A stretch of DNA of 63,865 bases, counting the filler, from Reclinomonas americana ATCC 50394 (Eukaryota), in NCBI GenBank assembly GCA_048213135.1. It is 9 parts of 4 records of this genome, joined end to end, with 100 filler letters (N's around TTAATTAATTAA, not from the genome) between each part and the next. Parts side by side here need not be neighbours in the genome. Positions count along the whole stretch, not along the records: positions 1 to 22,983 come from PS015452.1; positions 23,084 to 27,356 come from PS015453.1; positions 27,457 to 34,059 come from PS015453.1; positions 34,160 to 37,066 come from PS015453.1; positions 37,167 to 40,393 come from PS015453.1; positions 40,494 to 50,472 come from PS015453.1; positions 50,573 to 52,864 come from PS015456.1; positions 52,965 to 62,322 come from PS015456.1; 1 more part is not named here. One strand, given 5' to 3'. Every line of letters begins with the position of its first letter. Position 1 is the stretch's first letter. The notes beneath the pieces were generated by a model. The model had not been told where the DNA came from, searched no databases, and worked only from the letters and a program-made list of their open reading frames with translations. Both the position numbers and the translations under genes were made by a program. Shown here piece by piece: positions 6,856-63,681 of the stretch.

Positions 6856-9800
6856 ATGTCGTCGCCACGAGCGCGGAGCTCGACAGTTGCGTGTGGCGGC
6901 GCGCGTGCGTGATGACTGCGGAAGAGAGGAGGAGACTCACATATTTTTTCTTGATGTTCGATTGACTCAGATGAACAAGGCGCTCGGCTCGCCGCGCACG
7001 CCACCCGGTCTGTATCCACAGTCAATAACGCCGCCTTCGTCGGCGGGCACGAGCTCGGGGAAGTACTCGCGCTCCGGATCACGCACCAATGGCACCTCCA
7101 GTCGCTCCTCGACCGCTTCCGTCATTCTCCATCCAACGTCTAGCCGCGGATCGATGCCGACCTCTCCGCGCGGTAGTGGTGGTGGCGGAAGCAACGAGGC
7201 GCTGGCCAGTATTGCGGAGGCGCAGCGGAATCTGGTGGAGAGGGCCATCGAAGGCAACTCGGATTGGAGCGAGGAAGGCCGCACAGAGTTGCATCGAGCC
7301 GCCTACGACGGCGACATTGGCGTCGTGAATGCCCTGTTGCGCCAGCAGCAGTTCAGTGTCGACACACGAACCAAGACGAGCCTGTGGACGCCGCTGCATG
7401 AGGCAGCCTCACGCGGCAACGTGGATGTCATGCAGCTGCTCATCTCGCAGGGTGCGCAGGTCAACAGTCGCACCAAGAATCAGAGTACGCCGCTGCACAT
7501 TGCCGTGCGACGCGGTCGGTTCGCTGCGGCCACTCTGCTGCTGGCCAACAAGGCGTCGCTGGATGCCAAGGACGCATGGGGCGAGTCGGCACTGCACTGG
7601 GCCGGCAACTACGGCCAGGTGGAAATGCTGCGCCTGCTGTTGGATCGGCAGGCGGCGCTGGCGAACGAGCGCGACAACGAGGGCAAGACGGCGCTCCACA
7701 AGGCTGCCGCCAATGGTTTCGATGAGGCCGTCGCAGTGCTGTTGCAGTACGGAGCGCGTGCGTCACTGACCGACGACAAGGGCTGGAATGCGGCTCACGA
7801 AGCAGCGTTTCGCGGTCACGCCGCATGTCTGCGCGCCGTTGCCGCGTTCGACAGCGGCTGCTTCGGGGCGCGCACGGAGAGCAAGTCATCGTGCATGCAT
7901 CTGGCGGCTCGGTGTGGCAGCACCGACTGCGCCAGTGTGCTCATGGAGCACGGGCAGGTGGGCTCGATGGGCGCGGCCGACACGTGGGGCGAGACGCCAC
8001 TGCACTGGGCCGTCTACAATGGCCACGTCGGCATGACCAAGTTCCTCGTGGCCAACGACTCCGACACCGACACCATCAACCGCGGCTCGCAGATCGGCGT
8101 CACGCCACTGCATCTGGCCGCTCGCTACGGCAAGGTCGGCTGCATGGAGGTGCTGCTGCGCCGCGGCGCACTGTGGCAGCTGCCGGCCGAGAGCGGCTTC
8201 ACAGCCATGCACGAGGCCGCCATGCACGGCCAACTGCAGTGTCTCACGGTGCTGCTGGCTCACGGAGGCGCATTGGCGGCCAACGTCGAGGATGCCGACA
8301 AGAAGACTCCACTGCACCAGGTGCGTGAGAAGATGAGTGAGGTGGAGATGATGGAGAAACTGACCCTGGTTTGTTTTTTTGCAGGCGGCGTTCGGTGGAC
8401 ATGCCGAGTGCGCAGCCGTGCTGCTTGAACACCACGCCAACCCGAATCACCAGGGCAGCGACGGATGGACACCGTTGCACGAGGCCGCCACCCGTGGCAA
8501 GGATCAAGTGGCACGCATTCTCCTCCAGCTCGGCGCCGATCCCAGTTTCGTGCATCGGAACCGCCTCGCCGGTTTCTTTTTCCGTTTCTCACGCCTTCCT
8601 CCCTCCGCAGATGTGCACAACAGCATGGGATCGACACCATTGCATTTTGCGGCTCGTGCCGGTGCGCTCACAGTGATGCGCGTGCTGCTGAAGAACACCA
8701 CACCGGCCGACCCGAACAGCGTCGACAAGTGGCTGGAAACGCCGCTGCACTGGGCGGCCTTCTCCGGCAACCTCGATGCCGTGCGCTTGCTCGTCCGCCA
8801 CAACGCCTCAATGCACATGCGCAACTCGGTCGGCTCCATGCCCTTTCACATTGCCTGCCGATACGGGCACGCTCAGGTGCTTGCAGTTACCAGAAGGCAA
8901 TATCGATCATTTCCTCACTTCTCTCTCTCTTCCCAGGTGGTGGCCGAGTTGCTGGATCTCGGCCAGGACGTGGAAACACGCGGTGAAGACGGATGGACAG
9001 GCCTGCACGAGGCCGCCGCCAAGGGCCACGTCGACTGCGTCTCCACACTGCTGTCCCGCCAGGCTTTTGTCCTTCAGCCCGACGACGCCGGCAAGACACC
9101 CTTCCACATTGCCGCCTACAATGGCTGGCTGGAGGTGCTGCAAGTCATGGAACCCGCCGTGCTTCGGCACCGCACCGACTTTGACGCGGTAGACACCAAC
9201 GGATGGACGCCAGTGCACGAGACGTGCGTCAAGGGCATGCACAAGTGCACTGCGTGGCTGTTGCGACGCAGCAACCCCGACGCCGCCACTCTGCACGCCA
9301 GCACACCACTGCACTTTGCCGCGCGCTCAGGCATGGCCGCGTGCATCGACGTGCTGCTGAGCAACGCAGGACGCGCGGCGAATGCACAGGCGCGCGACGA
9401 GTGGGGCGCCATGCCTCTCCACTGGGCCTGCTTCAATGGGCATGCCGAGGCCACGCGTCGCCTGTTGCAAGTGGCGCCGCCTGATGTGCTAGACGCCGAC
9501 CAGTGCTCTCCGCTGCACAAGGCCGCCTTCCGCGGGCACGCCGAGTGCATTGAGGTGCTGTGTGGTCGCAGCAGCAAGCAGGCGCGCGCCAATGTCAACC
9601 TCGCCGGTCATCACGGGTGGATGCCGCTGCATGAGGCCGCCAGCAAAGGTGCGCATTTTTTTGATGCACAATGAGAGAGGCAGGCATTGACCAAAGTGTG
9701 TCGCGCAGGTCACGACAAGGCGGTGCTGACGCTGCTCAAGTACGACGCCAACATCAACGCGCAGACGGAGAAGCTCAGCACGAGTCTGCATCTGGCGGCA

Positions 9801-15800: not shown

Positions 15801-17690
15801 CAGCGAGTGTGAGAACGAGTGTGTAATGCCACAGGGGAGAGAGCGATTGAGAGACAGCGAGCGTTGACAGAGGCGCTCATCACTCTCCATTCGCAGGGAG
15901 CCACACCGGTGTGTCTGGCCGCCATCACCGGCAACTTGCAGTGTCTGGATCTCCTCGTCAAGCGCGGTTGCAATATCCACCTGGGCACCGAAGAGCGCAC
16001 CACACCGCTGCATCTGGCGGCTCGTGGCGGACACCTGGAGTGTGTGCGACGCCTGTGCCGTGCCGGTGCCGACACCAATGCACGTACCTACTATGGCGAC
16101 ACGCCGTTGCACGAGGCTGTGGATGCGTCGAGTCTCGACTGCATTCGGGAGTTGCTTGAGCATCGTGCCGACATCAAGGCCACCGACAACTGCAATGCGA
16201 CACCGCTGCACTTTGCCGTGCAGAATAGCGATGCCGATATTGTGGCGTACTTTTTGGATCGTGGTGCCACGGGTGCGCGTGTGTTGATGGAGCGTGGTGA
16301 TTCCGTGATGGCGCGTTGTCTCACTTGCCCTTGTGTGTGCAGGAGCCACGGATGAAATCAAGGACAACGACGGAAACTCGCTGGTCCACATTGTGGCACT
16401 CTCCGGCATGCATCGGCTGTTTGAGCAGCAGGTTGCCATCACCAAGGATGCTCTGCTGCTGACGAATAACAAGGGCCAGGTTCGTGATATGATTCAGGGT
16501 GGATGGGATACTCTGTCTCTCTCTTTCTCTCTCCCTACTGCTCATCTCACGCGCTCTGTGCCCTTCTTGTGTACATCCCAGTTGCCACTGCACATGGCAG
16601 CAATTGCCGGCAAGACCGACACGGTGGAATATCTGGTGCGCCGCATGAAGACACACGGACTGAGCATCGACATTCGCGACACAGACAACGCCACGGCCAT
16701 CTACTACGCGGCGCTCAGTGGCCACCCGGACACGGTGGATTTGTTGGCACGCGAGAAGGCCGATCTCGACAATGTGCGCGACAAGGGCGGCATGTTGCGT
16801 TATTATTTCCGCACCTCGTGCTCCCCCAAGTTTGGTGCTCATCTTTTTTTGTTGCGGCAGTCACGAACGCGCCGTGTCGCCACCGCTGAGTCCCATGTCG
16901 CCATCCGGCCGCAGCGGTCGCAGTCAGCCCCGTCGATCGACCTCGGTGCTCGGGCAGTCGGCCGCCGCCTCGCTTGATGCACGCAATCCTCTGTACGCCG
17001 CTGCTCTCGGTGGGCAAGCAGCGGTGGTGGCCGTGCTGCTGCACCACCGGGCCAGCATATTCAAGCTGGGCTCTGAGCAGCGCACGGCGTTGCACGCGGC
17101 GGCCATCGCAGGCAAGGTGGAAGCGCTGCAGCACTTTGCCGAGGTGGACGTACGACGGTGGATCAACGAGGGCGATTTGGAGAACGAGACACCGCTGCAC
17201 TACGCCTGCGTGCAGGGTCACGTGAATGTGGTGCGGTGGTTGGTGCAGCACGGAGCCGACGTCAATCGACTCGACTCGTACCTGTGCTCGCCACTGTACG
17301 AGGCGTGCTTGGAAGGTGAGAGTGTGTGTATGCACATGGAAAGTACGGAGTGAGAAGCGGTCGCTAATCATGCACGCACCAGGCAATGTGGACGTGGTGC
17401 GCTACCTTACGCAAGACCAGGACGTGCGCAACCTCGATCTAGATGTGCAGGATTGCAATGGGTACTCGGCGCTGCATGTGGCCGCCCAGCAGGGTCTCAC
17501 CGATGTGGCGCGCTTGTTGGTCGCCGCCGGTGCACGCACCGACATGCCCAACAAGGACAGGTTAACGCCGTTGGAGATTGCCAAGTCGCGCCAGCGGCAA
17601 GGTGTCATTCTGGTGCTGGAGAATCAACGCGGGCGCGGTACACCTGTGCCCACCACACCCTCCCGAGGCTCCTCCAGTCGAAGAAGATGA
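6856..17690 (+). CDS. Giant ankyrin-repeat protein (~3,290 aa, 13 exons by eye)
   Basis: Dozens of TPLHxAA/GxxxVxxLLxxGA repeats across ORFs 6887-17690. Approximate exons: 6856-6885, 6971-8320, 8385-8544, 8611-8876, 8937-9648, 9709-9965, 10030-12209, 12294-15720, 15896-16272, 16343-16478, 16582-16793, 16861-17315, 17383-17690, joined by GT-AG introns. Confidence 0.92.
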
Positions 17691-17805: not shown

Positions 17806-20536
<2,731 letters not shown>

Positions 20537-21408: not shown

Positions 21409-22084
21409 ATGCGGCGCGAGTTGCAAAGTCGCTGCCGCACGGCTCTCATCGGCAGCCTGCTCCTCTGCATCCTGCTGATCCTCTGGTGGTACGCCCACAT
21501 GGCAGGCATCTGGGCGCGCATGGATTACTCCAAAGAACACGCAGGCACGAACACAACAACACGCGTCACTCTCCCACTCACACACTCACTCTCTCTCTCT
21601 CTCACATAGGCGTCACACTGAAGACCGTGGCCGACTACCTCTCATCACGTGAGGGCGCCGGCGACAGCGACTCGATACAACCGCAGCAAGTCGCGCCGGA
21701 TGCCAGTGAAGGCGAGGGCGATGACGACGCAGCACCTCCTCCCCGCGAAGAGATGCTGCTCTACTTTATCGACATGCCTACAGTGCCTCCACCGCCTCCG
21801 CGTCGTCGCGCAGCTGCACCGGCTGCGAGTGATGGGAAGAGTGCGCCCGAGTTCCCACCAGTGGTGCGAGTGGAGGCCATGCGACATGCGATGCAGGAGG
21901 CGCTGTGCTTGGCGCTGATCACCAATCGCCGCTTTGTCGAGCCGCTGATGCTGGTCGATGTGCCGCACCCCGATGCGTTGCGTGTCTTTCCCCTCGTGGG
22001 GTCTTCATCGTGTTGAATACCGAACTTGCACGTGGGGATGATATAGGTACAAGAGACCACCGGCACCTCGGGACGATCCGACGG
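21409..22084 (+). CDS. Type II membrane protein, possible glycosyltransferase (O-fucosyltransferase-like), 3' incomplete
   Basis: N-terminal TM segment (ALIGSLLLCILLILWWY), a stem region, then the motif ALCLALITNRRFVEP. Putative GC-AG intron 21545-21609 and donor at 21977. The gene runs toward a contig break. Confidence 0.5.
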
Positions 22085-22776: not shown

Positions 22777-23348
<572 letters not shown>

Positions 23349-23729: not shown

Positions 23730-24596
23730 GCGTGGTGATCACCGATGCGGAGATTGCGGAGGCCGTGGAGCGCGTGTTGACTTCGCACCGTGCCGAGTTG
23801 CTCGAGATGCGATACAGTGCACCGCTGGGCCAGTGGACGGCTGGAGTTGCGTGTGTGCACTCGCACCTACGTCGAGTTTGAATGGTTATTGACCTCTGTG
23901 TATGTGTTGTTGTGATGCAGTTGCGCAAGGATCGGCGGCTGCGCTTTGCCGATGGCCGCAAGTTGAAGGATGAGTGCGATCGCCAGGTGGCGGCGCTGCT
24001 GGGACCCAAGACCGAGGCCGACTTGAAGCCGAAGAAGCCGGGCAAGAAGGTGCGTCTTTGCAGCAATTTTGAAGTGTGGCGACTGGCATGCTCACGAGCG
24101 ACTGGTAGGCACCGGCTGCTGGTGCGTCGGGCTCTGCTGCACCTGCTGCCACTGCCGCGGCGACGGCTGCTGCGTCGTCGGCGGAGGAAGCGGCACCGGA
24201 GAAGATTCGTGATTTTGTCGGCCGTGATCTGCTCGAGGCTCGCAACTCGCCGGCCGCGATTGCGAAGCATGAGGCGGCTGTCGGCACCATGGTGGTCACT
24301 CGGTTCCCGCCGGAGCCCAATGTGCGTTACAGGGAAAGGGGGAAGGGAGAGGGAGGGGGAAGGAGAAGAGAATGGGAAGAGGGAGAGGGGGAGCGAGAAG
24401 GAAAGGGAGGGGAAAGGAGAGGATAAAGGAAGGAGGGAATGGGATAGAAAGAAAGTAAGACTGAAAGAAAGAGAGAGGTTGGAAAGCAAAGGGAGGTGAG
24501 AGCGAATGGAGGGAGACAATGTTTGATGGTGGAATTAGGAAGGATGAGCGCTGGTCGTGAGTATTGGAACGATGGTCGTGAGATGTTGAGGATGGG

Positions 24597-24629
<33 letters not shown>

Positions 24630-27212
24630 CGAGAGAGGGAGATGCAGACAGGCAGGCACGCACATACAGATGCTTGATGCAGGATCAGGAGGAGTGAGAG
24701 ATTAGTGTTCGTGTGCGACAAATGGGAGAGGAGGTGTTGTGGGTGTAAAATGTGAGCCAGATATCCACTCTATAAATTACTCATCCTTCTCCCCTCGCCA
24801 GGGTTTCCTGCATCTCGGTCACGCCAAGGCGATGCATCTCGATTTTGGTTACGCGCTGGAGACTGGAGGCATGTGCATTTTGCGGTACGACGACACGAAC
24901 CCCGAGGCGGAGAAGACGAGCTACATTGAGTCGATTGCTGAGGTGCGTGCGTGCGTGCGTGCGTGGTGGAGAGAGCTCAGCCTTTTCCACACATCCGTTT
25001 CTCATCCGTGCGCGCAGAACGTCACATGGATGGGCTGGCACCCTGTGCGCACCACACACTCGTCGGACTATTTTGACCAGCTGTACGATTTCGCGGTGGA
25101 GCTCATTCGCCGCGGCAAGGCGTTTGTGTGCCACCAGAGTGCCCCCGAGATGAAGGCCACTCGTGATGCGCGCCAGCCGAGTCCGTATCGCGATCGCACG
25201 GTGGAGGAGAATCTCCAGTTGTTCGAGGACATGAAGAACGGCGTCTTCAAGGAGGGCGAGTGCACGCTGCGCTGCAAGATTGATCACACGCACGATAATC
25301 CAAGTTGCGGCAGAGGAGGAGGAGGAGTGAATGGCACAGGGTGATTGTCGGGCTGTGTGTGCTCATTCGCCTCGTGCGCAGACATGCGTGACTTTGTGGC
25401 GTACCGCATCAAGTTCACGCCGCATCCGGTCGTCGGCGACAAGTGGTGCATCTACCCGACCTACGACTACACACATTGCCTGTGCGACTCGCTGGAGGAC
25501 GTGACGCACTCGCTGTGCACGCTGGAGTTTGAGAATCGCCGCGAGTCATACTTTTGGCTGCTCGATGCGCTGGATCTGTGGAAGCCCAAGGTGTGGGAGA
25601 TGAGCCGGCTGAACATGACGCACAATGTGATGTCGAAGCGCAAGCTGCTGGCCATGGTCAATGAGGGTAAGTTTGTAAGAAGGGAGAGGGAGGGGGATTG
25701 GAGAGAAGGGGAGAGAGAGGGAGAGAATAATACGTCGTGTTGTGTGTTGGTCGAGATGATGGGTCAGTGTGATCTGTTGAGTGCGCGAGGGAGAAGACGA
25801 GTGAGCGAGAATGTGTCTGTGGAAGCTGGGTGTACGATGTGGCGAGCAGTGAGTGCGAGTGAGCGAGATCGGCCATCTCTATTCTGAGTGCGTGAGATGG
25901 CATGAATGGGCAAGGCTAGTCAGTAATTAGCAGAGTGGGGTGCACGAACTGACATGCGGTGAGTGAGTGAGCGAGCTGTGGAAGCTGGGTGCGCGAAGTG
26001 AAGAGCTGTGAGTGCAAGAACAAGCGAGCATTGACTTTTGTGTGAGCTAGATTGCTTGTCATTAGAAGCTGGGTGCACGTACTGCCGAGCAGTGAGTGAG
26101 CGAGATTGTTGTCTGTGGATGCAGGGAGCACGAAGTGGCGAGCAGTGAGTGCGAGTGAGCGAGATCGGCCATCTCGATATGACGGAGTGCATGAAATGGC
26201 ACGAGCACTCAGGGATTAGAAGTGGTTGTCTCTGGAAGTTGGTGCACCAAGTGGCAAGCAACCCGTCTCTGTCATCAAGCGCAATTAGTCTTCGTATGAG
26301 TGTTTTTACTGGAAGGCAGTGAGCACTGAAAGAACACCTCTCTTCTCCTTCAGCTCTTCCCCTTCAGCTCTTCCCCTTCAGCTCTTCCCCTTCAGCTCTT
26401 CCCCTTCCGCACTTCCCCTTTTCCTTCTCTCATCACCGCCTTCGCAACAGGCCTGGTGCGCGGCTGGGACGACCCGCGCATGCTGACCCTCAACGGTCTG
26501 CGACGACGCGGCTACCACCCCGACGCCATCAACGCTCTCTGCCGCATTGTGAGTGCCACGCGCAGCCCGAATCGTCTGCACATGAATGTGCTGGAGCATT
26601 GCTGCCGCACCTACATGGACGAGCATGCGCCGCGTGCGTTTGCCGTGCTGAACCCGCTGCGTGTGGTGCTGCTGGATGTGCCGGAGGAGCATGTGGAGAT
26701 GGTGGAGATGCCGAACCACCCGAAGAATGCGACATTTGGCGCACGCCAGGTGCCACTCTCGCGCGTGATCTACATTGAGCGCAGTGATTTCCGGCTGCAG
26801 GACTCCAAGGTTTGGTTGGGGGGTTGAAGCAAAGACAAGACAGCGTCGCGTCACGCAAGCTGATGATTCTCCTTTTCTCCCTCCCTCCTTGTGCAGGACT
26901 ATTACGGTCTGGCACCCGGCAAGGAGGTGGGCCTGCGCTACGCCTTCAACATCAAGTGCGAGGAGGTGGTGATGAATGGCGAGGAGGTGGCCGAGCTGCG
27001 CTGCAGTGTGGACCGCGCCAAGACGCGCAAGTGCAAGGGTCACATTCACTGGGTGGCCGAGCCGCGGCCAGGACAGGCGCCGACGACGGTGGAAGTGCGC
27101 TTGTACGAGTACTTGTTTACCGTGGAGGTGCGTGTTGGGGAGGGGTAGAGGGGGAAGGGTAGAGGGGTAAGGGAGGGAGGGAGAGAGAAAGAGGGCAGAG
27201 GGTATCAGAGAG

Positions 27213-27248
<36 letters not shown>

Positions 27249-37300: not shown

Positions 37301-37497
37301 CACCGCGACGAGCGCGACGCAGTCAAGAACGAAGTCGTGGGCCGTGCGCAGCTCATGGAGCAACTACGCGGCGAAATCGAGATGCTTCGGCGGAAATGTT
37401 GCGTCTCCGTCACACCCTATCCTGTCGTGGTGTCTGTACTCACCAGTACCACCACAAAACAGCCGGTCAAATCTACACACCAATGCCGGGCACGTGA
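34319..37497 (+). CDS. CFAP44: Cilia- and flagella-associated protein 44 (WDR52), C-terminal coiled-coil part
   Basis: RPGEDYEDPRD...GDFKLKEDPAYVVPEHLRVNAEKK, FNERFLALRDLK, ADLKTTDLKILLLYREL, LWKIFRKKVKR, FQTQKQKKLNEL..VPLK, QLMRFGQTVNLEDL and terminal LRRKSGQIY. The 5' WD40 part lies in or before the gap. Confidence 0.88.
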
Positions 37498-42490: not shown

Positions 42491-45400
42491 GATGGCGATC
42501 GAAGAAGGTCAACAGCGAGTTGCGGGACAAGCTTCCACTTGCAATTCTCAATCACCTTTGCGCGTCGTTGCTGCTGTTCTCGTGCACTCGCCATCGCGCG
42601 AACAGCGCACGCTTCCATCACCTTTGCGAGCGTGCCTGGCCCACGCATCACACCGATCGCAGACGACCGCGTGACACTCTGTGTGCGCGCGCGCTTGCGT
42701 GTATAGAGTACGATGAGCGAGCACGTGCGCGAGGCCCTGGATGCCAGCAGCGACAGTGGCGACGACACGATCCATGTGCTGTGGTGGCGCTCTCATCGAC
42801 TCGCAGCGCGCGCCAACCGCATCATGGCACTGCATGTCAGTTGCGCGCATTCATTCATTCATTCACACAAGAGAGAGAGAGACAGAGAGAAATGCCCAGA
42901 CTCACGCTTGACGCACACAGCACCCGACGACACACGTGCCGACTCACTCAGTGAGAAGCGCGGCGTGGCCAACCTCGCTGTCAGCGTCATGTCGCCACCG
43001 AGTGAAGTTGCATTCAATGATGATCAACAACGCTTTTGGCGCTTGGGCTCTTCCTGACAGCACCATCGCCGCAGAGTTCACTGGACGAGTGTCTGCGCGC
43101 ATGCGAAGCGTACGTGGAGACCAGTGTGACGTGTGGCGCACTGGCGCGCTTGACCTACCGGCGGGCGTGGCTGGAGAGCGAGTTTGAACGACTGATGCGA
43201 TGGCTGGCCTCGTGTGTGCCCACGCGCGGTCACAGCGCCGGCGCAGTGACACTGGAGGATGATGAGTCGTTCCAGATGAGCAAAGAGCGTTGCGTTTGTT
43301 GCACGCTCCACGCACTCCACGTTCCCTGTCTGCAGATTCCCTCCCTCACATCGCCATTGACAGACGATGAAATGGATCGTGTGGAGATGGTGAGGCTGAT
43401 GGCCTCGGCGCGTCTCGAGTTCCCCGCTCTGTCGCCATCGGCGGTGCCATTGTCGTCATCGCCGCTGGCGCCCATGTTCCAGTCGACGGAGACGGTGATT
43501 GGTGCGATTCGACCTTGCCTGCTGAGTGCATGCGATGGCGTGTTGCGGGAGCAGGTTGTCGAGTTTCTGCTCGAGGTGGCGGCCATGGTGAGTCGTGACG
43601 GCATGATGAGCCAGGCGATCGAGGCGGTGTGGGGCGAGTTGCACGAAAGTTGCGCGTGCGACAGCTGCTATCCGTGATTTTCGATATCGCTGACTTGTTA
43701 CTTCTTGCAGAGGTCGATTCGGATCCAGTCGCTGTGCGACGGTCAGCGCGTCTATTGCTGGCCGACGGCGACACCGACACCGCCACCACGCTGTACCGCA
43801 AGGCACTGGAGTTGTTTGATCATAATTTGGGTGGGGCGAATATCGAGACACTGCGCACGGCAGAGGAGCTGGCAGACGACGTGTGGCGCAGATTACGGCG
43901 GTTCGATGAGGTGAGTGGATGGAGGGAGAGAAAGGGGAGAGAAAGAATGGCTGTGTCACTTTCTCCACCATGATGGCAGTGTCTCGCACTGGATACGACG
44001 TCGGCACGCATTCGTCATGTTGCGTGCACTGCCACCCCGTGCTGTGCGCATTGTTCCTCACTGTCGACTCTATGTGTGCCACGCACAGCAACTCTTTGGT
44101 GACATGCATCCGTCGACGCTGAATCGCATGTACCATCTCGGCAACGACCAGTTGAATCTTGGTGCTGCAGAGGACGCTCTCCAGATTCACGGTGCGACTG
44201 CTGCGCGATCCATGCACTCTCTTGTGTGATTCGCGCTCTCTCATCGCGTGTCAAATATCACCTGTCGCAGAGTCGACGCTGCGTGCACGTCGAGAGGTGC
44301 TGGGTCCCAAGCATCGCGACACACTGCGCTCGGTCCACGCAGTGGGCTCTGTGTACATGCGCCTCGACGACTACTCGCAGGCGATATCCTACTTTGAGGA
44401 ATGTGTGCAGGGCCGAATCGAGGTTCTCGGCAGCGATGCAGTCGGTGCGTGGTCGCCCGGCTCCCGTGGGAAAAGTACAGGGGTCTGCTGACACTGTGTA
44501 CACAGAGACGCTCGGTGCCATGTGCAATCTGGCCAATTGTTTGGATATGATGGGTGTGCACGAACGTGCTGCCGATCTGCATCGTCATGTGTGTACAGTT
44601 CGACAGCAAACGCTGGGTGACGATGATCCACTGACTATTGCTGCCATGCACAACCTGGCACTGGCACTCACGCGGGCGTCGCCACACGAGGCCGCTGCGC
44701 TGCATGCCGCCGTGCTGGAGACGTACGACAAGTCGTTTGGCGTCGACAGCGACGAGTATCTGGCCGAGGCCACGTCGCTCGCCAACGTTCTCTCGCTGCT
44801 CAACCGGCACCAGTGCGTGTTCGAGATGGAGTCTTTTCTTTTCTCTCTCCCGCCACGTCCTCAAGCGTGTGCTTGGCGATGCAGGGACGCGTTTGCGTTG
44901 CACACCAAGGTCTACGACTCCATGATTCGTACGCGCGGTGTCGACCATCCGTGGACATGTGGCGCCCTCAACAACCGTGCCCTGGCTCTGGATGCCATGT
45001 CACGCCACGAGGAAGCAGTGGTACTTCATCGCGAGTGTCTCGAACGACGACAGCGACTGTTGGGGCTGGAGGCGCCGGACACGCTTTGGTGGGTATTGTG
45101 TGTGTGTGGCTTCTGAGTTGTCGTCCTGTGTTGACACTTTTGCGGCGCGCAGGTCCATGGCAAACCTGGTTCGCTTGTCGAACTACACGTTCATTCTCTG
45201 TGCACACATGCAATGCTAATCATGGTGGCACGCTGCAGGGTAATTCATTATTTGCACTTGGACGGTATGACGAGGCTGCCGAATTGTACGACGCATGCCT
45301 GTCGGAGCGGAAACGGCAACTTGGCCCGCGACATGAGCACACGTGAGCATACATTTTGCTGTCGTTTTGTTGTTGGAGCACATGTCGGACTGATTCCACT

Positions 45401-46505
45401 TCTTCTCAGGTTGTGGTCCATGAACAACTGTGCTGCTGGTGCGTGTGTGTGCGTGTCCGTGCTCTATTGTTCGATATGTACACTCACATTCTCGGCACGC
45501 AGCAATGTACGCTCAGGGCAAGGTGGGCGAGGCGTTTGTCATGTTTGAGCAGACGTTTGACATTCAAAAGGTGGAGTTGGGACCGGAGCATCCGCACAGT
45601 TGCGTGTCGATCCGCGTGTCGCTGGCGAGGACACCTGCGCACTGACGTCCGCGCGCCCCTGTTTGTAGCCATGGTGTCGGCGCATAATATCGCCAACTGC
45701 CTGAGCAGCATCAACTGCATGGGCGAGGCTGTGGAGCGTCACGAGAAGAACCTACAAATGCGTCGGCGAATTCTGGGATCCGGTACATATGCTAGCTATG
45801 CTTCCTGCCTCTTTGTAGCTCTTATCCCCAGCACTGCGTAGAACATCACGACACGGTGGAGAGTGCCAAGGCGCTGGCCTCGCTGCTGCCGTTCGTGAAC
45901 CGCACCGCCGATGCGCTGGAGCTTGCACAGTTCTGCTTGCTGGCGCAGCGCACATCGCTGGGCGAAGAGCACCCCGAGTATGTGGATACGCTGCACCTGT
46001 TCAACGCGATCAGTGCTGCTGTGTGCGAGTTGTCGGTGCCGTCGCCACCGCAATCGGCGCGCTCGCCACTGTTGAAAGCGAAGCCCCCGATGCCGGAGGT
46101 GCGCGGCCCGCTGCATGCGTCGCCACCGCAGAATGCCACCACGGCAGCGCCGACCAACGGACGGGCTGGAGGTCGGCGTAATTCGTTGCCCTCCAGCGCC
46201 GAGGGCGGCAAGACCCATGCACACCAGCGAGTGACGTCGTCCTCGTCAGAAGACGACGACACGGCACAGCCGGTGCGCGCTGACAGCGCATCGCTGACGG
46301 ATCAGGGACCCAGCACGCCGACGTCGTCGCAGCAGGCGTTGAAAGAGCACCTGCGTGCCAAGATGCTGCAACTGCCGCGACTCAATCGAGGGTCTGTAAG
46401 TTGTCTGGGGGCAGGTCTTTTTGTGATTTTCTTGGTTGACTGACAACGACTCCTCTCGTGCACAGCGCGGCAGCATCGGCGCCCATGCGGATTGTTTTTG
46501 CCTAG
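42491..46505 (+). CDS. TPR-repeat protein (kinesin-light-chain-like 42-aa TPRs), 5' incomplete
   Basis: Repeated LGxxHxxTLxxxxNLA motifs (LGPKHRDTL, LGDDDPLTIAAMHNLA, GVDHPWTCGALNN, LGPRHEHTL, LGPEHPHT). Confidence 0.8.
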
Positions 46506-49254: not shown

Positions 49255-49820
49255 ATGTCATCTTCTCCTTCGTCATCATCGTCGGCGTTTTCGGTGCTGT
49301 GCACGGGGCACACGCGGCCGATTATGAACTTTGCGTACTCGCCACTGGTGGAGGGAAGCTTCTGGATGGTGTCGGCATCGCTGGATGGCTTGCCGATGCT
49401 GAGGAATGGAGAGAGTGGAGTTGCGGACAACGTTGCATGCACATGCATCCTGTGTGTGCGTGCATGCGAGAGAGCGTTGCATGCACACACTGCGTCATAG
49501 TGCGCGTCTCTGCACGTGAAGGAGAGAGAGAGAGAATAGGAGAGCGCGCAGAGTGAGGCGTGCAAGACGCGACGAGGAAAAATGTCCACTTGTGCACACA
49601 CGCACTCTCTCTGTGCCTCACACGCGCGTGTGTGCAGGACTGGGTGGGCACCTTCGAGGGACACAAGGGCGCCGTGTGGGATGCGGCCATCAACCGACAG
49701 GCGCTGCTGGTGGCGACGGCCAGTGCCGACTACACGGCACGCGTGTGGGACGCCCTTGGTGGCACGGAGAAGGAGAGCTTTGAGCACGAGCATGTGGTCA
49801 AGGCCGTGGGCTTTTCTCAT
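49255..49820 (+). CDS. STRAP: STRAP/UNRIP WD40 protein, exons 1-2
   Basis: LCTGHTRPI..., SASLDGLPMLRNGESG|DWVGTFEGHKGAVW, ATASADYTARVWDA, FEHEHVVKAVGFS. Confidence 0.9.
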
Positions 49821-50069
49821 GTTGCGCACGCAGAGTGGTTGNNNNNNNNNNNNNNNNNNNNNNNNNNNNNNNNNNNNNNNNNNNNNNNNNNNNNNNNNNN
49901 NNNNNNNNNNNNNNNNNNNNNNNNNNNNNNNNNNNNNNNNNNNNNNNNNNNNNNNNNNNNNNNNNNNNNNNNNNNNNNNNNNNNNNNNNNNNNNNNNNNN
50001 NNNNNNNNNNNNNNNNNNNNNNNNNNNNNNNNNNNNNNNNNNNNNNNNNNNNNNNNNNNNNNNNNNNNN

Positions 50070-50413: not shown

Positions 50414-50572
50414 CTGCACATGCATGCATGAAATGATGAGTTGAAGATGGAAAATCATCATGGCCTTTGTCGNNNNNNNNNNNNNNNNNNNNNNNNNNNN
50501 NNNNNNNNNNNNNNNNTTAATTAATTAANNNNNNNNNNNNNNNNNNNNNNNNNNNNNNNNNNNNNNNNNNNN

Positions 50573-55953: not shown

Positions 55954-57790
55954 ATGATGCGTCACCCTCTCTGTCACCTTCCTTCGTCAATGACTGGGAA
56001 CGGCGGCGACGTGGGGCTCTCTGGCACGACTGTGCGCTGCCCGTTGCACTCCTTAGGGTGTCCGTGGGAGGGCGGTGCAGAAGAGTACTCGCAACATCGG
56101 ACAGCGTGTGGATTCTCCATATTGGAGCGCTTTCAACGAGGAGTCGATGCCACCGTGCACCACCTGCAGCGAGTTGCGTGCATGTGTATGCATGAATGAG
56201 AGGCAACGCACTGACTGTGTGTGTGTGTGTGGTGCATCAGCATGTGGAGTCGCGAGTATTGTGGTCACAAGGAGACGATGATCATGCAACGATGTCGCAG
56301 CAGGATCGCATTGCGGCTCGATCGCGGGCGACCAGCATGGAGGCCTATGCCAAGAGCAATGCCACAGTGTCGGCCATCCATGCACGTCTCATGGAGCTGG
56401 AGCTTGATGTGCTTCGTTTGCGCGGTCTGCAGCCACCGTCGCCTCCGGCTCCGCCACCACCGCCGCCGGAGAAGCGACTGCGTGCGGTGCAGTTGCCGGT
56501 GTTTCGATGGACCGAGGCCGGTGATCACGTGCGTCTCAGCGACGAGGGACGCGTGGCGAGTGGTGTCGCAGGGCCACCGGCTGGCGTCGGTACGCCCAGT
56601 TGGGCGTTTGGCGTCTTGACACAGCCGCCGTTGATGGCCGGGTACGAGTGCCGTAGGCGACTTGCCTGCAGTACCGTGTGCTCACTGTGTGTGTGCGTGT
56701 GTGTGCGTAGGACGCGGTACGAGTTTCGTGTCTTGTGGGAGCAGCAGGAGAGATTAGCTGTCACGGCAGAGTCGGCTCAACGTCCACCCGGCTTCGCGTT
56801 GGTGCCCGTCGGCAGCAACGAGGAGCTCATTCTCATTCCGCGCGTGGTCAAGGATCGAGTGGATATTGAGGAGGAGAAGGCGCGAAAGGAGAGCCGACGA
56901 CGGCGAGCGACCTCGGTTGGTGCGTGAGCAGAAGGAATTTGCTTCGATATCTTGCTTACAAGAACACTCACTATTGTTGCGCGCTGGCACAGCCAACTTG
57001 GCACACGCGCGTGCCATGCAGCAGGCGTCGGAACAGGCGGCTCTCCGACAACGGCGGTTAACGCATTTGCACGGTGGTGAGTGGTGTCACGCATCGTGTC
57101 GGCGTGATCCTCGCACTGACTGCCCCCGCGCCCAGTGATGCACGACCTGACGCCAGTGGGAGACTCCGACGACGAGGACGAAGACGAGGATGGAGGCGGT
57201 CGCGGCGATGGCGAAACCGACACAGATGGGGGCAGCTACGCGCAAAAGGGCAGCACGTATCGCACCGACGCCACCACCACCCTCACTCCCTCGTCGTCGG
57301 CCGCAGGTTCGATCGTGACAGTGTAAGAAGAAAGTGCTTTTTGGGCATTCCCCTCTCACACACATTCGCTGCGTGCACAGGCACACCCGAACCCGGCATG
57401 GCATCTGGCGCACCATTACCACCGCCACTCGAGCAGCAGTCGCCACCAACATCACCTCGCGTCACGCCACCCTCCGGTGCCACGCCGGGTTTCCCCTTCT
57501 CCACTGGCTGCTTTGAGGGCAACTTTTACGTCAAAGGCTGGTGGTCACAGCAGTTTCTGGTGTTGTGGCCGCCACATCAGCGTCGTGCCGAGCTGACCGT
57601 CATGATTGACCGAGGCACTGGGGACTTTGCGGTACGCGCCGAGGATCCAAACACTGGCGCACTAATCGCAGAGAGCACTGCGTCGCATTGCATCTCCACG
57701 GAGCCGGGAGTCACTCTCCGTTTGGCCGCCGTGGTGCGGCAGGGTGAATCCATTCGAGTCCTCAACGGGACTCGCTACGACCTCGAGTGA
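55954..57790 (+). CDS. Protein with a TRAF-type zinc finger, coiled coil and a SPRY-like C-terminal region
   Basis: VRCPLHSLGCPWEG...QHRTACGF zinc finger, LMELELDVLRL coiled coil, and beta-rich segments. The SPRY assignment is tentative. Confidence 0.5.
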
Positions 57791-57937: not shown

Positions 57938-59877
57938 TCATAGGCCGCCAGAATCGTCGTAAATGTCGATGCTGGATCGTCGCAGAACCGGACCGCCACC
58001 GTAGATTTCGTGCAGGAACGTCCACACCTGTTCACCGTCAGCGCCAACAACAGGGGAGCGCAAGGTAATCGCAACGCAACTTCCCGATTGATTCCACGAT
58101 AGTGCGTCACTTTTTTCAGATCCTTCTTGGGTCGACCATTCGCCTGCAGGAGCTCGTCGTTTCTAATCGGTCCCGGAGGTTCGGCGCGCGTCTCTGCACG
58201 GCGGCCAAGTGCGTCAGCAACAAAAAAAGAAAGAAAGATGCGGAAGTGAAATAAAAGTGGCGGTAACCAACCTTGCAGCGCCCAATCCTTCCACTCCTGT
58301 AGCCAGCCAGCGGTAATAATGTACCACTCATCCGTGTCGTGCTTTCGGTCGGCGTTCATGACAAACACACGCTCGTTTAGCCGCCGCTCGGCCAGCAACG
58401 CAGCGCGTGACAAGTCGTCGCCGCTGCCGTTGACTGCCATGGCCACCGTGTCGGCGGGACCCTTCTTGCCCCGCACTGTCGACGACAGCGAGCCGAGAGC
58501 CGCAGCGGCCGCCGACGACGTTGAGGAGGCCGCCAGCGTGGTTGCACCGTTGGAGCCACGACCGACGCCGTGGTGGCGCGCCGCGTTCTCCATCTCCAAC
58601 ATGGTCTTCTCCAGCTGTTCCACGGCACTCATCAACATTTGCGAGCGATGCTGCTCCTCCGACAGCAGCCGTGCAGTCTTGTTGTGCGCGGCTCGTTCGC
58701 GCTCCAGCTGTGAATCGCGCGAGTGAGACGTTGACCACACGGAACCAGGTGGAATGGTGAGGCGCGACACACACACACACACACCTCGGTTTGCAAGCTG
58801 CGCACGACTGGCGCCGCCAGCTTGAACGCACACTTGGCCTCGTGCTCGTCTCTGCCGCCCGCCAGCCCCTTCCACTCGCAGCCGATCTCATTCCACTCAC
58901 ACGTCACTAATCGCTGCGCACACTCACTCTCCGTGTGCACCAGCAGCTGCCGTCGTGGCACCTTGGCACCACACCCGAGTGGGCAGTCGTGCAAACACTC
59001 CTGCTTGTGCGCCGCGTGATACGACGATATCGTGCCCGTCCACGCGCATCCACTCACCCTGTGCTGCAGGCAGCGTATCTGGGCAGAGCACAGAGTCAAC
59101 CTCAGTTGTCAACGCGGAGGAAATCGCCGGCACACACCGTCAAGTTCTGATACTGTCGCTTCAGTGGCGGCTGCGGCTCGACCTGGTTGTTCACGTGCAT
59201 CTCACCACATCCGCACAGATTCGAGGGCCGCTCAGTGCAGTGAACTGTCGTCGACACGCATGAGGGAGGGAGGAGGGAGGGAGGAGGGAGGAAGGAGGAG
59301 AAAATAATGACTCGATTCGGAACATTGGCATCGCCCGCGCTCACGCGTGCACATTGCCACCTCTCTCTCTCTCTCTTCTTCTCACATGTGGTCGACAGAG
59401 TACGCATAGCAACAGCGACAGCACAGCGATGGAACAATGTGTGTTGTGTGGGTATATGCGCAACATTGGCACAGCAAGTGCGACTGCGCAGGAGAGCAAA
59501 GTGAGCACACAGAGACACACGAGCACATACACGAACAGTTGTGCGTCACTCACCGACGTACAACACAACACAAAGGGATCGCTGACAAGGTCCAAACACT
59601 GAGTGTATGTGTGCGCGCACGCATTCAGATAGCGCTTTCACACACAAGAGAGAGAGAGAGAGAGAGGGAGAGAGGAACGCAACGACAGGGCACGTGTACA
59701 TGGACTCGGCGATCGACTTGGCCACACCCTCCTGTGTGTCGCGTGTGTGTCAAGACAAGTAATATACTTGCGCGCATATGCATTGTACACACTCACCTCC
59801 ACATCATCAAAGGTCACTCGAGGTGAACGCGGTGGCAACACAGACGACGCCAGTGCGCCGTTTGCGCAAAATGCCAT
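57938..59877 (-). CDS. RING/TRAF-zinc-finger protein with coiled coil and C-terminal DUSP domain
   Basis: RCLQHRVSGCAWTG..HKQEC, CPLGCG..HTESECAQRLVTCEWNEIGCEW..HEAKC. DUSP region WYIITAGWLQEWKDW..PPGPIRNDELL..HYRGINRE|VWTFLHEIYGGGP. The 5' RING exons are placed approximately. Confidence 0.75.
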
Positions 59878-60079: not shown

Positions 60080-62259
60080 CTACGAGGAGAGCGATGGAAT
60101 CAGCTGGCGATCGAAGCTGAGAGGGTTCGGCGATGGTGGTCGCCACGCGTTCAGCTGTGCCATGAGATCGGTCAGGTGCGCCACTTTGGCTTCCACCAGC
60201 CGGCACTGTTGTGCATCGGGTGAGTACGTTGGACTGAGGAGGCGACGCTGGCATAAGCGTACCGACACAAAGGAATGTGGTCGACCGCCCTTCCGCCGCT
60301 GCCCGCTTGTGGCGTCCACGACACTCTCCCGGTGCAGCACGCCAGTCTCCTCTAGCATGGACAGCACGTTTTTGGCCGTTTCCTGTGAGCGACTCTCACT
60401 GAAGCAGAGCATGCCCTGCGGAACCAATTGCTCAGCGCCACTCGTGACACACGCGCACAAGCAGATGACACGCTCACGCAACCTTGTCGTACAGGAAACC
60501 CGACGTTGCTTGTATCTGCCGCAGCAGGCGCCCTTCCGGCAACCCACCATCCACCTCCCGCGGCACCACACCGTCGACGACATACGTCGCACACCAGTAG
60601 GCCTCCACAAATGGCGCCACCAGCGAGCACAAAAAGTCAAACAGGTGGCGCTCCGATTTCGCCGTTGGCGGCCTCACAACCCTGCATACAACGTCAGTGC
60701 GAGGGACTCTTGCAATAAAGGAGAAAAGAACCAAACACACCACGCCGAGGGCGGTCGAGAAGAAAAGTTGCCATCACCACCAAGAATGCCATCGTGGCAC
60801 ATTCGCCGCGCCACGTTAGTGGTCGCGTCAGCCAGCTCGTCCTCACTCGGCAACACAAACTCATTCCTGAGAGTGTCGGCCAAGCTTCGAACCTCGCTCA
60901 CCACCGTTGTGAACTCCGTGACACCGTTCGAGCTTCGACACCGCGCCTGCACCGCCAGCGCAATCAAGGCCTCCAAGGCGAATACGTGAATAAGCTGGTT
61001 GCGACCGAAGCTGATCGCCAAATGGTGCACGGGTGCGGCGCCGACTTGAATCTTTCCCCGACTCAATTGCTCAGCGTCCAAATGCTGCGACCAGGCGGCA
61101 GGAGTGAGGATCGACATTCATAACAGAAAACAACTCAGACTTCAAAGAACGGACCTTGTTGAGAATCGCCAGTGTCTGCTCGAGTTGATCGACCACGTCA
61201 CTCGCCACCACCGCGTTGCGTTTCCGCAACTCGTTGCTCAGCAGCACAAACTCGTCGCACAACTCCGCCCTGTCAATCGGTTCACCTGTCGTACGTCATC
61301 AGCACACGTCACAGTGAAAGGTAAAACGCGCAGATGTGCTACCGTTGCGCATGGCCAGCACAGCCGACACAATGGCGGTTCCAGTTACGGTCCGCACGCT
61401 GTTAATGTCGCTCACTACGCGATGCGCGAGCGCCGAGACTCGCGCACGGTGCTGGTGTGCGGAGCCAGCCGCAGCATCCTTGGCGGCCAGCGCCTCCAGG
61501 TATTCTCGCAGGCGGAACGGCTTGGCGAATCTGTCGTGTGGCGATAAGGTGAGAAGCGCGGCCCTGCACACCGTCCCTCTCACGTTCCCACGCACCGCAC
61601 ATGCACTCGACCGAGATTGGTGCGCAGCAGGCTCACCGCACTCTTCAGCAGGTGCCACAGCGACTCGCGACGCTTCTGCACGCCGGTGATTTCGTTGAGG
61701 AAGGCCTCCGATTCGAGCACATTGTCGTACTGAATGGAGCACGGGCACACAAACGCATCGGTAAACTCGCCCGCCAGGCACGCATCAACCGTGTCGGCCA
61801 GCAGACCCATTCGCGGCCGCAACAGCTGGAACGATGGCGCCTGTCAGAGCACACAAACGCAAAGAGCTAGACACGCAGGCATACGTGCACATACCTTGCC
61901 GGCGCGCGACCGACCGCCCTCCACAAAGTACTCGAGAATGTGCCCGTCGCGCACAATCAACGACAGGTACTCACGCAACACGGCCTTGTACAGCGCATCG
62001 CCCGAGTACGAACGGCGAATGAAGAAGGCGCCGGAGTGCCGCAGTACGTAGCCGACACCCGCAAAGTTGAGGTTGTTGCCGGCGGCCACATGCGGTGGCT
62101 CCATGCCATTCAGGACCATTGTGTACGTCAGCACCTGCTCAGTGGCCATGAGAAACGCGACGACATGATCCTCCGCAGCCACTGCCTCACCATGTAATCC
62201 ATGTGCGAGTTGTGGCTCGGCAACAAGATCAGCGGCGCCTGCTTGTACGCCTCACGCAG
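60080..62259 (-). CDS. Glycerol-3-phosphate / dihydroxyacetone-phosphate acyltransferase (GPAT/GNPAT family), 5' incomplete
   Basis: Acyltransferase blocks PLILLPSHNSHMDY (HxxxxD), AAGNNL, GAFFIRRS, EYFVEGGRSRAGK, CPCSIQYDNVLE and LGRVHV. Confidence 0.9.
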
Positions 62260-62422
62260 CTGCAGCGGAGAGAGACATGAGAGGGGCAACAGGTCAAAGA
62301 AGCATCGATCGACAAGAGCCCGNNNNNNNNNNNNNNNNNNNNNNNNNNNNNNNNNNNNNNNNNNNNTTAATTAATTAANNNNNNNNNNNNNNNNNNNNNN
62401 NNNNNNNNNNNNNNNNNNNNNN

Positions 62423-62600: not shown

Positions 62601-62644
62601 CAGCACAAGTCACTCTATCTCTCTCCCTCTTTCGCACACACATA

Positions 62645-63681
62645 CCTTCAATCGATCAGACACGCGCACCAGTGGCGCGCGGTCGGCAATCACCGGCTCC
62701 TGGGCACGGCCGCCAGAGCGCAGGTTAAAGTTGATCTTTGGGATCTTTCCAATGGCAAAGGCGAGCGTGGAGCCCAGTCGACTGGTGGCCTGTTCCGCTC
62801 ATCGCATGAGAATGACATGAGAGACAAGTGGAACACATCCTCTGGAGGAAGAAGACCCACCGCCATGGCCGGTTGCGGCGCTGCCTCCTCACTCGTCGCC
62901 AACCCCAGCTCCACCTCCATCTGCCTCTGAATATCCTCCGACAACAGTCGATATCGCACACCCGTCATCGGCAGATCCTCCAACCGCTTCAGCAGCGCCT
63001 TCGGACTGGACCGGCGATGCGGATACGCATGCGGCAAGCGGGTGCCCTCACGACGAAAGATCTTTTGCACCTCCTTCCCGTCCAACACCAGCGGAACCTC
63101 CTCCAACGTCAGCTTCTTGTTGGTCTTGCGCGCGGCCTCAAATTGCACATCACGGTCTCGCTTCTGCTTCCACTCGTAGATCACTGCTGTGCATGTCAGC
63201 GCACAGTGACCAGTGACAATCGTTGTGTTGCAATTAGAGACGCAACGCAATTGGCGATCCTCTGCCAACGTCCACGCCGTTGGATCGTACTGTACTCCGT
63301 CCAATCCGCGTCCATACTCGGTCGGCAATTGCAAGTTGAGCTCGGCACGGTGCGTTCGATCTGTGTTTGCCATCAGTCAACGCTCTTTGTATGTGTGTGT
63401 ATAATGATCGAGTGTGACTCACCGGCAATCGACAGCGACAACTCATGCATCGGCCGTTGCTCTCTGACCGGCACTGCCACGCCTTGCGCGTCGTCGAGCA
63501 CAGAGAGAAAGGCGGCGGCCGCCGAGTTGACAGCAGAAGCCGTTGCTGATACATTGGCCAGTCCTGCTGCTGCAGCAGTCGGTTGCTTCCCAGCTGCTGC
63601 TGTAGCAGTCGTTGTAGTGGTTGTGGAGGACGAGGAGGCGGGCTTGGTGGCCGGCCGAGCAGAGGTCGGTCGCGAGGACAT
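62645..63681 (-). CDS. Uncharacterised protein, 3' incomplete; contains a Myb/SANT-like WTxxED..L motif
   Basis: MSSRPTSARPATK... low-complexity start, then WTLAEDRQL|LIYEWKQ. Short introns. Confidence 0.5.

Follow-up and report, generated by a model that had tools for sequence, protein, structure and literature searches.

We describe an abundant second class of 5' splice sites (donors) in a stretch of DNA from Reclinomonas americana ATCC 50394. These donors read GTTGCGT after an exon end other than G, and they stand beside ordinary donors of the form G^GTGCGT (a caret marks the exon-intron boundary throughout, and lower-case letters are exon bases). The window, that is, the whole stretch analyzed, is 63,865 bases long with a G+C content of about 57% and 1,682 N across 20 runs, and all counts below come from this one 64-kb sample. 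Its content is gene-dense eukaryotic nuclear DNA, with genes interrupted by short introns. A Pfam survey of stop-to-stop open reading frames (ORFs) places four genes as follows:

about 6.9-17.7 kb, plus strand: giant ankyrin-repeat gene
17.8-19.2 kb, minus strand: MetAP2
23.1-29.1 kb, plus strand: GlnRS
30264-33128 (30.3-33.1 kb), minus strand: NACHT/pentapeptide-repeat gene

The same survey identified a CCCH finger gene, a TPR gene, a STRAP-like WD40 gene, a DUSP/TRAF gene and a GPAT-like gene. The closest matches in protein searches were 56% identical for GlnRS and 68% for STRAP, none of them near-identical, and green algal GlnRS matches stood at about 50% identity. When a GlnRS exon was compared with metagenome contigs, 80 loci matched, all at 53% identity or less, with no close relative among them. 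In the gene regions 34-42 kb and 0.2-6.5 kb the exons matched no Pfam family, so for many shifted-class junctions there the evidence is that of the gene finder. A protein search with a GPAT exon returned two weak matches, and the GPAT junctions at 63246 and at 60482 versus 60477 are not pinned by homology.

GTTGCG-type sites as intron starts

Introns were predicted with a purpose-written gene finder whose score has three components: a 3-periodic Markov model of coding sequence, intron content, and acceptor plus branch site. Its motif-free pass allowed every GT as a donor and carried zero donor-motif information; a second pass added two donor profiles and leans to both classes by construction. 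We also ran profile junction scans, with profiles built from fetched homologues of GlnRS, MetAP2 and STRAP, in which every gap between exon matches was scored for all donor/acceptor pairs that preserve the frame, with any dinucleotides. Donors with G at +5 were called ordinary, and those with T at +3, G at +6 and a base other than G at +5 were called shifted.

The motif-free pass predicted 128 introns with a typical length of 55-90 nucleotides (nt), and their commonest donor hexamer was GTTGCG (19 of 128). The finder chose 19 of the 84 GTTGCG sites, compared with 128 of 8115 GT sites overall (1.6%), a selection 14 times that of the average GT; for GTGCGT the count was 11 of 109. A reversed-sequence control yielded 20 introns, one of them of shifted type, and GTTGCG was absent among the five commonest hexamers listed. 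The excess is also visible with no gene model, as a branch motif plus YAG lies 40-125 nt downstream of 30 of 81 GTTGCG sites, compared with 20.8% of all GT sites (p = 5.5e-4). By the same measure GTGCGT scored 43 of 105 (41%) and GTTTCG 11 of 23, and the sister hexamers GTTGCT, GTTGCC and GTTGGC showed no excess (18-21%). Retention would disrupt the frame or add an in-frame stop for 26 of 33 shifted introns and 68 of 78 ordinary ones. These figures bear out the claim of the original prediction that GTTGCG donors are more frequent than chance allows.

Proteins place several of the junctions. Four of the 12 GT-AG junctions pinned by the GlnRS, MetAP2 and STRAP scans have GTTGCG donors, and motif or domain continuity adds three more genes (on the minus strand the donor is the higher coordinate):

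25304..25381, plus strand: GlnRS, caa^GTTGCGGC...GCGCAG, 78 nt; rank 1 of 1730 pairs at 159.1 bits, next GT-AG pair 116.4; found in the motif-free pass
23846..23920, plus strand: GlnRS, gga^GTTGCGTG...ATGCAG, 75 nt; best GT-AG pair at 54.2 bits, with a close rival (23855/23929) at 52.9 and 87 of 1641 unconstrained pairs above; motif-free pass
19019..19091, minus strand: MetAP2, cga^GTTGCGCA...GTGCAG, 73 nt; best GT-AG pair at 59.4 bits, next 48.5, with 104 of 1524 unconstrained pairs above (top 61.7); motif-free pass
49420..49637, plus strand: STRAP-like gene, gga^GTTGCGGA...GTGCAG, 218 nt; 149.2 bits, 0 of 1751 pairs higher
38401..38468, plus strand: CCCH zinc-finger gene, caa^GTTGCGCT...GCGCAG, 68 nt; splicing completes C-x8-C-x5-C-x3-H (..CK^FLH..)
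45599..45668, plus strand: TPR gene, aca^GTTGCGTG...TTGTAG, 70 nt; TPR_10 continuity; motif-free pass
58028..58080, minus strand: DUSP/TRAF gene, gaa^GTTGCGTT...GAACAG, 53 nt; DUSP continuity; motif-free pass

In the TPR gene TPR_10 is matched to its last position (42 of 42) at the end of the upstream exon; downstream, a split codon and two residues precede a match that starts again at position 4. The DUSP profile is aligned over positions 2-57 as far as the donor at 58080, and the following exon takes it up with its first residue, over positions 57-75. The Pfam zf-CCCH_4 match (positions 2-19 of 22) ends at the donor 38401, in an intron that the gene finder missed. In the STRAP-like gene, donor 49420 outscores 49432, the gene finder's choice, which reaches 139.0 bits. 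The gene finder misplaced two junctions (49432 and 38427) until protein evidence gave 49420 and 38401. The junctions that had been proposed from conserved protein in GlnRS, MetAP2, STRAP, the CCCH gene and the DUSP gene are supported, the first three by profile scans, the fourth by its motif and the last by domain continuity.

Two side observations concern these genes. A 37-nt micro-exon, skipped by the finder, lies at 38469-38505 (plus strand; ..FLHPYEETEG..) between the shifted intron 38401-38468 and an ordinary donor, atgg^GTGAGTTG. The STRAP-like gene changes strand: profile positions 7-54 and 54-117 match the plus strand at 49276-49419 and 49635-49826, and positions 104-223 match the minus strand at 50093-50449, past an N run at 49842-50069. 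An inversion could account for this, as could a misjoin at the gap or a paralogous fragment in inverted orientation.

All 25 donor strings listed in the original prediction are present, each at its position and on its strand, and 24 of them follow A, C or T. The motif-free pass recovered 15 and the two-profile pass 20. As intron starts, 22 of the 25 are supported by the motif-free finder, the donor-profile pass, a protein-profile scan or the completed zinc finger; the other three (40639, 49821 and 56173) remain candidates. About ten further shifted donors came to light, at 42840 (plus strand) and 1281, 1074, 4782, 856 and 59464 (minus strand) in the motif-free pass and at 2326, 684, 59683 and 60482 (minus strand) in the profile pass. 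The GTTGCGT class of donors is thus confirmed at most of the predicted sites.

Class size, exon end and shared intron features

The shifted class is large. The motif-free pass gave 59 ordinary, 22 shifted and 47 other donors, the last mostly noise of a motif-blind finder, and the profile pass gave 90, 35 and 14. Shifted donors therefore make up 17% (22 of 128) to 25% (35 of 139) of predicted introns, in at least eight genes and on both strands, and the abundance originally proposed holds at about one fifth to one quarter of the short predicted introns in the window.

The donor class is tied to the last base of the exon. Among introns of 300 nt or less, the -1 base is G for 42 of 51 ordinary donors (82%) versus 2 of 22 shifted ones (9%; Fisher p = 3.8e-9) in the motif-free pass, and for 67 of 78 versus 4 of 33 (p = 1.3e-13) in the two-profile pass. 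The association of +3T/+6G donors with a -1 base other than G, a central element of the original prediction, is thus found in the window by a finder blind to donor motifs.

In length, branch motif and acceptor the two classes are alike. Both have a median intron length of 75 nt, the branch motif CT[CG]A[CT] occurs at similar rates (18 of 22 shifted introns, 43 of 51 ordinary ones; p = 0.75), and the shifted acceptors resemble the ordinary ones, with C or T at -3 in 19 of 22. All listed shifted introns are GT..AG, and the two classes are interleaved within single genes such as GlnRS and MetAP2. By these features the shifted-class introns are predicted to be U2-type GT-AG introns of the major spliceosome.

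U12-type introns have the donor motif [AG]TATCCTT and the branch site TCCTTAAC. They resemble the shifted class in that a strict, distinct donor motif marks a minority of introns, and they differ in that the 3' signals here are shared with the majority class. We rejected a U12 origin on motifs, since neither U12 signal is present: the donors are of the GTTGCGT type, and CTCAC, CTGAC and CTCAT serve as branch motifs, as in other introns.

Ordinary introns provided comparators. Their commonest donor 5-mers in the motif-free pass were GTGCG (13), GTGAG (11) and GTGTG (11), and their preference at +4 runs C > T > A >> G (C 37-47%, T 28-33%, A 21-24%, G 4-6%). Perfect GTGCGT was no more frequent among ordinary donors with a -1 base other than G (2 of 9 versus 8 of 42, p = 1.0), and so no compensation was seen within this class. 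Three pinned examples are:

24943..25017, plus strand: GlnRS, gag^GTGCGTGC, 75 nt; 151.0 bits against a top score of 151.9, rank 5 of 1679
24322..24801, plus strand: GlnRS, ordinary register after an exon end other than G, aat^GTGCGTTA, 480 nt; rank 1 of 1765
18351..18420, minus strand: MetAP2, ccg^GTGCGTAT, 70 nt; 0 of 1247 pairs higher

The second of these substantiates an earlier caveat that some exons with a last base other than G use the ordinary register. A further profile-pinned MetAP2 intron (18751-18818, minus strand, atg^GTATCTAG) has no G at +5 or +6 and fits neither class.

The motif-free pass supplied the following further shifted-class introns:

16794..16860, plus strand: ankyrin gene, cat^GTTGCGTT, 67 nt
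21977..22046, plus strand: tgc^GTTGCGTG, 70 nt, acceptor TAG
35522..35596, plus strand: agc^GTTGCGTC, 75 nt
37398..37462, plus strand: aat^GTTGCGTC, 65 nt
39690..39779, plus strand: tat^GTTGCGTG, 90 nt
41548..41617, plus strand: ccc^GTTGCGTC, 70 nt, acceptor AAG
42840..42920, plus strand: tca^GTTGCGCG, 81 nt
43289..43363, plus strand: agc^GTTGCGTT, 75 nt
43649..43710, plus strand: aaa^GTTGCGCG, 62 nt
63187..63246, minus strand: GPAT-like gene, tgc^GTTGCGTC, 60 nt
4231..4311, minus strand: gag^GTTGCGTG, 81 nt, with the rare G at -1
1217..1281, minus strand: gcc^GTTGCGTT, 65 nt
1003..1074, minus strand: cac^GTTGCGCG, 72 nt
788..856, minus strand: GTTTCG form, cga^GTTTCGTG, 69 nt
4709..4782, minus strand: GTTTCG form, ctc^GTTTCGTC, 74 nt
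59245..59464, minus strand: aat^GTTGCGCA; acceptor uncertain, differing between passes

Others came from the donor-profile pass only:

6886..6970, plus strand: aca^GTTGCGTG, 85 nt
8545..8610, plus strand: GTTTCG form, cca^GTTTCGTG, 66 nt
34417..34490, plus strand: GTTGAG form, aga^GTTGAGTC, 74 nt; the motif-free pass took 34422
36828..36893, plus strand: agc^GTTGCGTC, 66 nt
41278..41358, plus strand: GTTTCG form, gga^GTTTCGTG, 81 nt
2259..2326, minus strand: aat^GTTGCGTG, 68 nt
610..684, minus strand: ttg^GTTGCGTC, 75 nt, G at -1

The remaining sites are candidates:

59484..59683, minus strand: gtc^GTTGCGTT, 200 nt; weak, donor-profile pass only
60383..60482, minus strand: aag^GTTGCGTG, G at -1; the two passes disagree
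56173..56240, plus strand: putative intron of a 5' untranslated region (5'UTR), cga^GTTGCGTG...CACTGAC...CATCAG, 68 nt; donor, branch motif and acceptor present, chosen by neither pass
40639..40645, plus strand: GTTGAGT donor; both passes took the rival 40646 (agt^GTGTGTGT) instead
49821..49841, plus strand: GTTGCGC donor; the intron would enter the N run 49842-50069, and the STRAP match reads through to 49826

For 60482 an ordinary donor lies 5 nt downstream (60477, GTGAGC), and the exon up to 60483 covers GPAT_C positions 257-307. Upstream of 56173 is an ORF without periodicity of G+C at third codon positions (GC3) that is not coding-like, and this candidate intron may sit in a 5'UTR. The region 50528-54840 (minus strand) stands apart: its ORFs of 795, 439 and 338 amino acids lack GC3 periodicity and match no Pfam family, in contrast to all confirmed coding regions of the window. 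Gene-finder calls around it are doubtful, including four GTTGCG/GTTTTG 'donors' at 49030, 50102, 54864 and 56095.

Other features of the window

Rfam at the gathering threshold returned two tRNA-Ala genes and no small nuclear RNA (snRNA) gene across the window; at E <= 1 it added weak, chance-like matches to microRNA families and again no snRNA gene. The two tRNA-Ala(AGC) genes, at 29456-29529 (plus strand) and 33763-33836 (minus strand), have identical Rfam scores and form an inverted pair flanking the NACHT/pentapeptide-repeat gene. The ankyrin-repeat gene (6856-17690, plus strand) has about 9.9 kb of coding sequence, with single exons of 3.4 and 2.2 kb that far exceed those of neighboring genes. 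Eight pairs of 44-base N runs, each with 12 readable bases inside the pair, lie at 22984-23083, 27357-27456, 34060-34159, 37067-37166, 40394-40493, 50473-50572, 52865-52964 and 62323-62422, and four single runs have 20, 228, 236 and 494 bases. Such regularity suggests masking, not assembly gaps.

Possible readers of the shifted class

When the two classes are aligned on TGCGT, the ordinary 7-mer GGTGCGT faces the shifted 7-mer GTTGCGT, and the base preferences on both sides of the donor are displaced by one position. The -1 base of shifted donors (A36 C36 G9 T18) resembles the -2 base of ordinary ones (A41 C20 G22 T18; chi-square p = 0.36), and shifted -2 likewise resembles ordinary -3 (p = 0.43). 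Within the intron, shifted +4 is G in 82-86% (G 86%, T 14% in the motif-free pass), as ordinary +3 is G 73%, T 14% and A 10%; shifted +7 is T in 68-79% and ordinary +6 in 61%. Each position from +7 to +10 fits the ordinary profile better after a one-base displacement.

We infer the identity of the reader, and the register in which it reads, from this displacement. Shifted donors, N^GTTGCGT, less often GTTTCGT and rarely GTTGAGT, carry a U(G/U)CGU block one base deeper than G^GTGCGT does, and the G found at the exon end of ordinary donors is here the intron's first base. A single reader, the 5' end of U1 snRNA, would recognize the 7-mer G(G/U)UGCGU in both classes, and U6, U5 and Prp8 would set the cut at the sole GU, whose position in the GTT form is one base farther upstream. 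The U1 of this lineage would differ opposite +3 and +4, for example with a G facing the invariant C, or else a protein or second RNA would add specificity. A U1 with G+C or G+U at positions 5-6 could form five contiguous pairs with the block, and it would explain both the tolerance of GCG only and the ordinary +4 order C > U > A >> G. That order, we infer, fits a U1 with a G opposite +4 better than one with a pseudouridine there. A +1 shifted register read by U1, with a lineage-specific U1 or an added factor as a required part, seems to us the best available reading, though it falls just short of probable. The fuller proposal, that about one quarter of the introns are read one base out of register through a co-evolved reader such as a U1 with G opposite the invariant C, is possible and is held more tentatively.

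Several observations weigh against a shifted U1 register. G at -1 is not merely unselected but mildly depleted in the shifted class, which the pairing model does not predict: exonic GTs that are not donors follow G in 28%, and three lists of shifted donors fall below this, with 2 of 22 (p = 0.03), 1 of 25 (p = 0.003) and 4 of 35 (p = 0.017). Two-base periodicity in the GT-rich intron starts partly confounds the downstream fit, and a shift of -1 does about as well as +1 if +4 is included. The shifted class also admits far fewer variants than a copy of the ordinary class moved by one base would. The motif-free pass found GTTGCG 19 times, GTTTCG twice, GTTTTG once and GTTGTG and GTTGAG not at all, and +5 is C in 95% of shifted donors, compared with C 37%, T 33% and A 24% at ordinary +4.

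Energetics add to these difficulties. Scored with the canonical U1 5' end as printed in PMC4856993, which may not be the U1 of this organism, ordinary donors pair at a mean of -6.6 kcal/mol, and shifted donors at -0.4 in the canonical, -0.8 in the shifted and -0.9 in the bulged register. Of 33 shifted donors, 12 pair best with this U1 in the shifted register, and many sites score 0.0 kcal/mol. In unconstrained duplex folding against 600 random GT sites, the area under the curve (AUC) is 0.89 for ordinary donors and 0.32, below random, for shifted ones. The hypothetical U1 ends ACGCAC and ACGUAC separate shifted donors from GC-rich decoys weakly (AUC 0.64 and 0.59). Because canonical U1 barely pairs with shifted donors, an altered U1, U6 or U5 is a necessary part of the model. 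Nor does a C at +4 by itself imply a changed U1, since Micromonas and Thecamonas prefer a pyrimidine there and keep canonical U1, according to the part of bioRxiv 10.1101/2022.06.08.495308 drawn on here. The original proposal of a shifted register thus stands in its one-base displacement on both sides; a simple shift on canonical U1 is not energetically credible, and the class is too strict for it.

Two other geometries fare worse. A register with a bulged U at +2/+3 should keep G-1 opposite C9 of U1, and the -1 counts speak against it: G at -1 is found in 2 of 22 and 4 of 33 shifted donors, compared with 42 of 51 and 67 of 78 ordinary ones. Cleavage after the G, which gives introns a 'TT' start and moves the acceptor by one base, was rejected: it needs introns ending in AGN, and the first exon base is G in only 6 of 22 cases and is not enriched.

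The strictness of the motif could instead point to a separate reader, that is, a second U1 variant, another small RNA or a protein complementary to GUUGCGU in the ordinary register. Two donor grammars would then coexist, and the resemblance to GGUGCGU would be due to coincidence or history. Seven near-invariant bases with C at +5 in 95% are what continuous pairing to a dedicated guide would produce, and among 256 hypothetical U1 ends the complement of GUUGCG in the ordinary register separates best (AUC 0.84). Variant U1 genes are also reported in humans (PMC3561869). Such a guide, pairing G+1 with C8, would place -1 opposite C9 and favor G, whereas G at -1 stands at 9-12%. Branch motif, acceptor and length are moreover the same as in ordinary introns, and the classes alternate within GlnRS and MetAP2. 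We consider a separate reader unlikely.

To a similar degree we doubt that the class has no special recognition at all. In that case donors poor in U1 pairing would be tolerated, the 75-nt introns would be defined by branch site, acceptor and U6/U5/Prp8 at the GU, and the TGCGT likeness would come from the composition of intron starts or the preference of a U1-associated protein. The negligible predicted pairing to canonical U1 in any register and the strong, uniform 3' signals agree with this, as does the combination of atypical donors and unchanged U1 in yeasts, Giardia, Trichomonas, Micromonas and Thecamonas (from the same part of bioRxiv 10.1101/2022.06.08.495308). Tolerance, however, predicts diffuse donors and not a near-invariant seven-base motif. 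It also sits poorly with the 14-fold preference of the motif-free pass for GTTGCG and with the lack of excess branch-plus-acceptor modules behind GTTGCT, GTTGCC and GTTGGC, and the depletion of G at -1 needs something that reads -1.

It is very improbable that the class is an artefact of the gene models, with true junctions elsewhere, for example at the GT five bases downstream within GTTGC^GT. The junctions are known from DNA alone, the gene finder erred at 49432 and 38427, and 13 of 33 shifted introns have another frame-preserving GT..AG pair close by (donor within 8 nt, acceptor within 15 nt). The other 20 lack one, and most of the alternative pairs have AAG or GAG as acceptor. Profile scans placed 25304 and 49420 exactly, and both finder errors were corrected toward GTTGCG donors. 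Least credible is an introner-like mobile element that brings its own donor, with the non-G exon end as its insertion site: the introns at 35522, 36828, 37398, 41548 and 63246 have GTTGCGTCTC in common and Micromonas introners with their own donor forms are known (PMC3879977, in the part used), but lengths and 3' signals are as in other introns, and we rejected it after all-against-all blastn of predicted introns of 400 nt or less gave dinucleotide-repeat matches only and no family.

A shifted U1 register would have precedents. It is experimentally established in human cells (PMC4856993, describing Roca & Krainer 2009), where, in the portion of that article drawn on, the validated noncanonical registers together make up 1.5% of 201,541 sites. 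As in the human sites, the consensus block here lies one base further from the cut and the cut stays at the GU; in the proposed register G+1 would likewise replace G-1 opposite C9 of U1, and the last base of the exon would take the place of -2. Unlike them, the shifted class here reaches 17-25% of predicted introns against that 1.5% for all noncanonical registers, its UGCGU pairs poorly with canonical U1 whereas the long block of the human model site pairs perfectly, and its register is proposed from sequence, whereas that of the human sites has been shown by experiment. The bulge +2/+3 register (Roca et al. 2012, tabulated in PMC4856993), with 68 predicted human sites, likewise shows GUU followed by a displaced consensus block in which either U could bulge, but it expects G-1, found here in 9-12% versus 82-86% of ordinary donors.

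Ostreococcus and Micromonas have AG^GTGCGT(G) donors and a (GA)CTGAC(G) branch site (PMC2483917, PMC3879977). The ordinary class here is similar, with GTGCG as its commonest 5-mer, G-1 in 82-86% and CTGAC/CTCAC branch motifs, whereas the portions of those papers drawn on mention no GTTGCG class; the present organism is not close to them, as the green algal GlnRS identity of about 50% indicates. In Archamoebae, U1 ends have co-evolved with donors, ACAAAC with GUUUGU in Entamoeba and ACGUAC with GUGCGC in Mastigamoeba, the latter with G opposite +4C (bioRxiv 10.1101/2022.06.08.495308, in part). They provide a precedent for a U1 recognition sequence that changes with its donors, including the G opposite +4C that the shifted model needs, but they have one donor grammar and one register, whereas under that model two registers coexist here.

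Our literature search, with subscription papers and supplements outside its scope, found no description of a GTTGCG donor class or of a genome with a shifted register as a major mode, and it found work on shifted base-pairing in human, yeast and C. elegans only. Co-evolution of U1 and donors has so far been reported in Archamoebae (Entamoeba and Mastigamoeba) and, with reservations, in Physarum. Splice-site models and gene finders assume one register, in which +5 is G and scoring extends over 6 to 8 bases of the intron, and a genome whose signal lies one base further in for a quarter to a fifth of its introns would be systematically mis-annotated.

If the shifted-register reading is true, this would be the first genome with a noncanonical register as a major, stable mode of splice-site recognition. 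It would offer a natural system, with thousands of substrates, for studying how U1 binding is uncoupled from the choice of the cut by U6, U5 and Prp8, and whether snRNA 5' ends and donors evolve together where introns are many. A single substitution that switches the class displaces the cut by one base and destroys the reading frame, so each intron would be locked into its class over evolution. This frame-locking of the two classes is a testable prediction for intron evolution.

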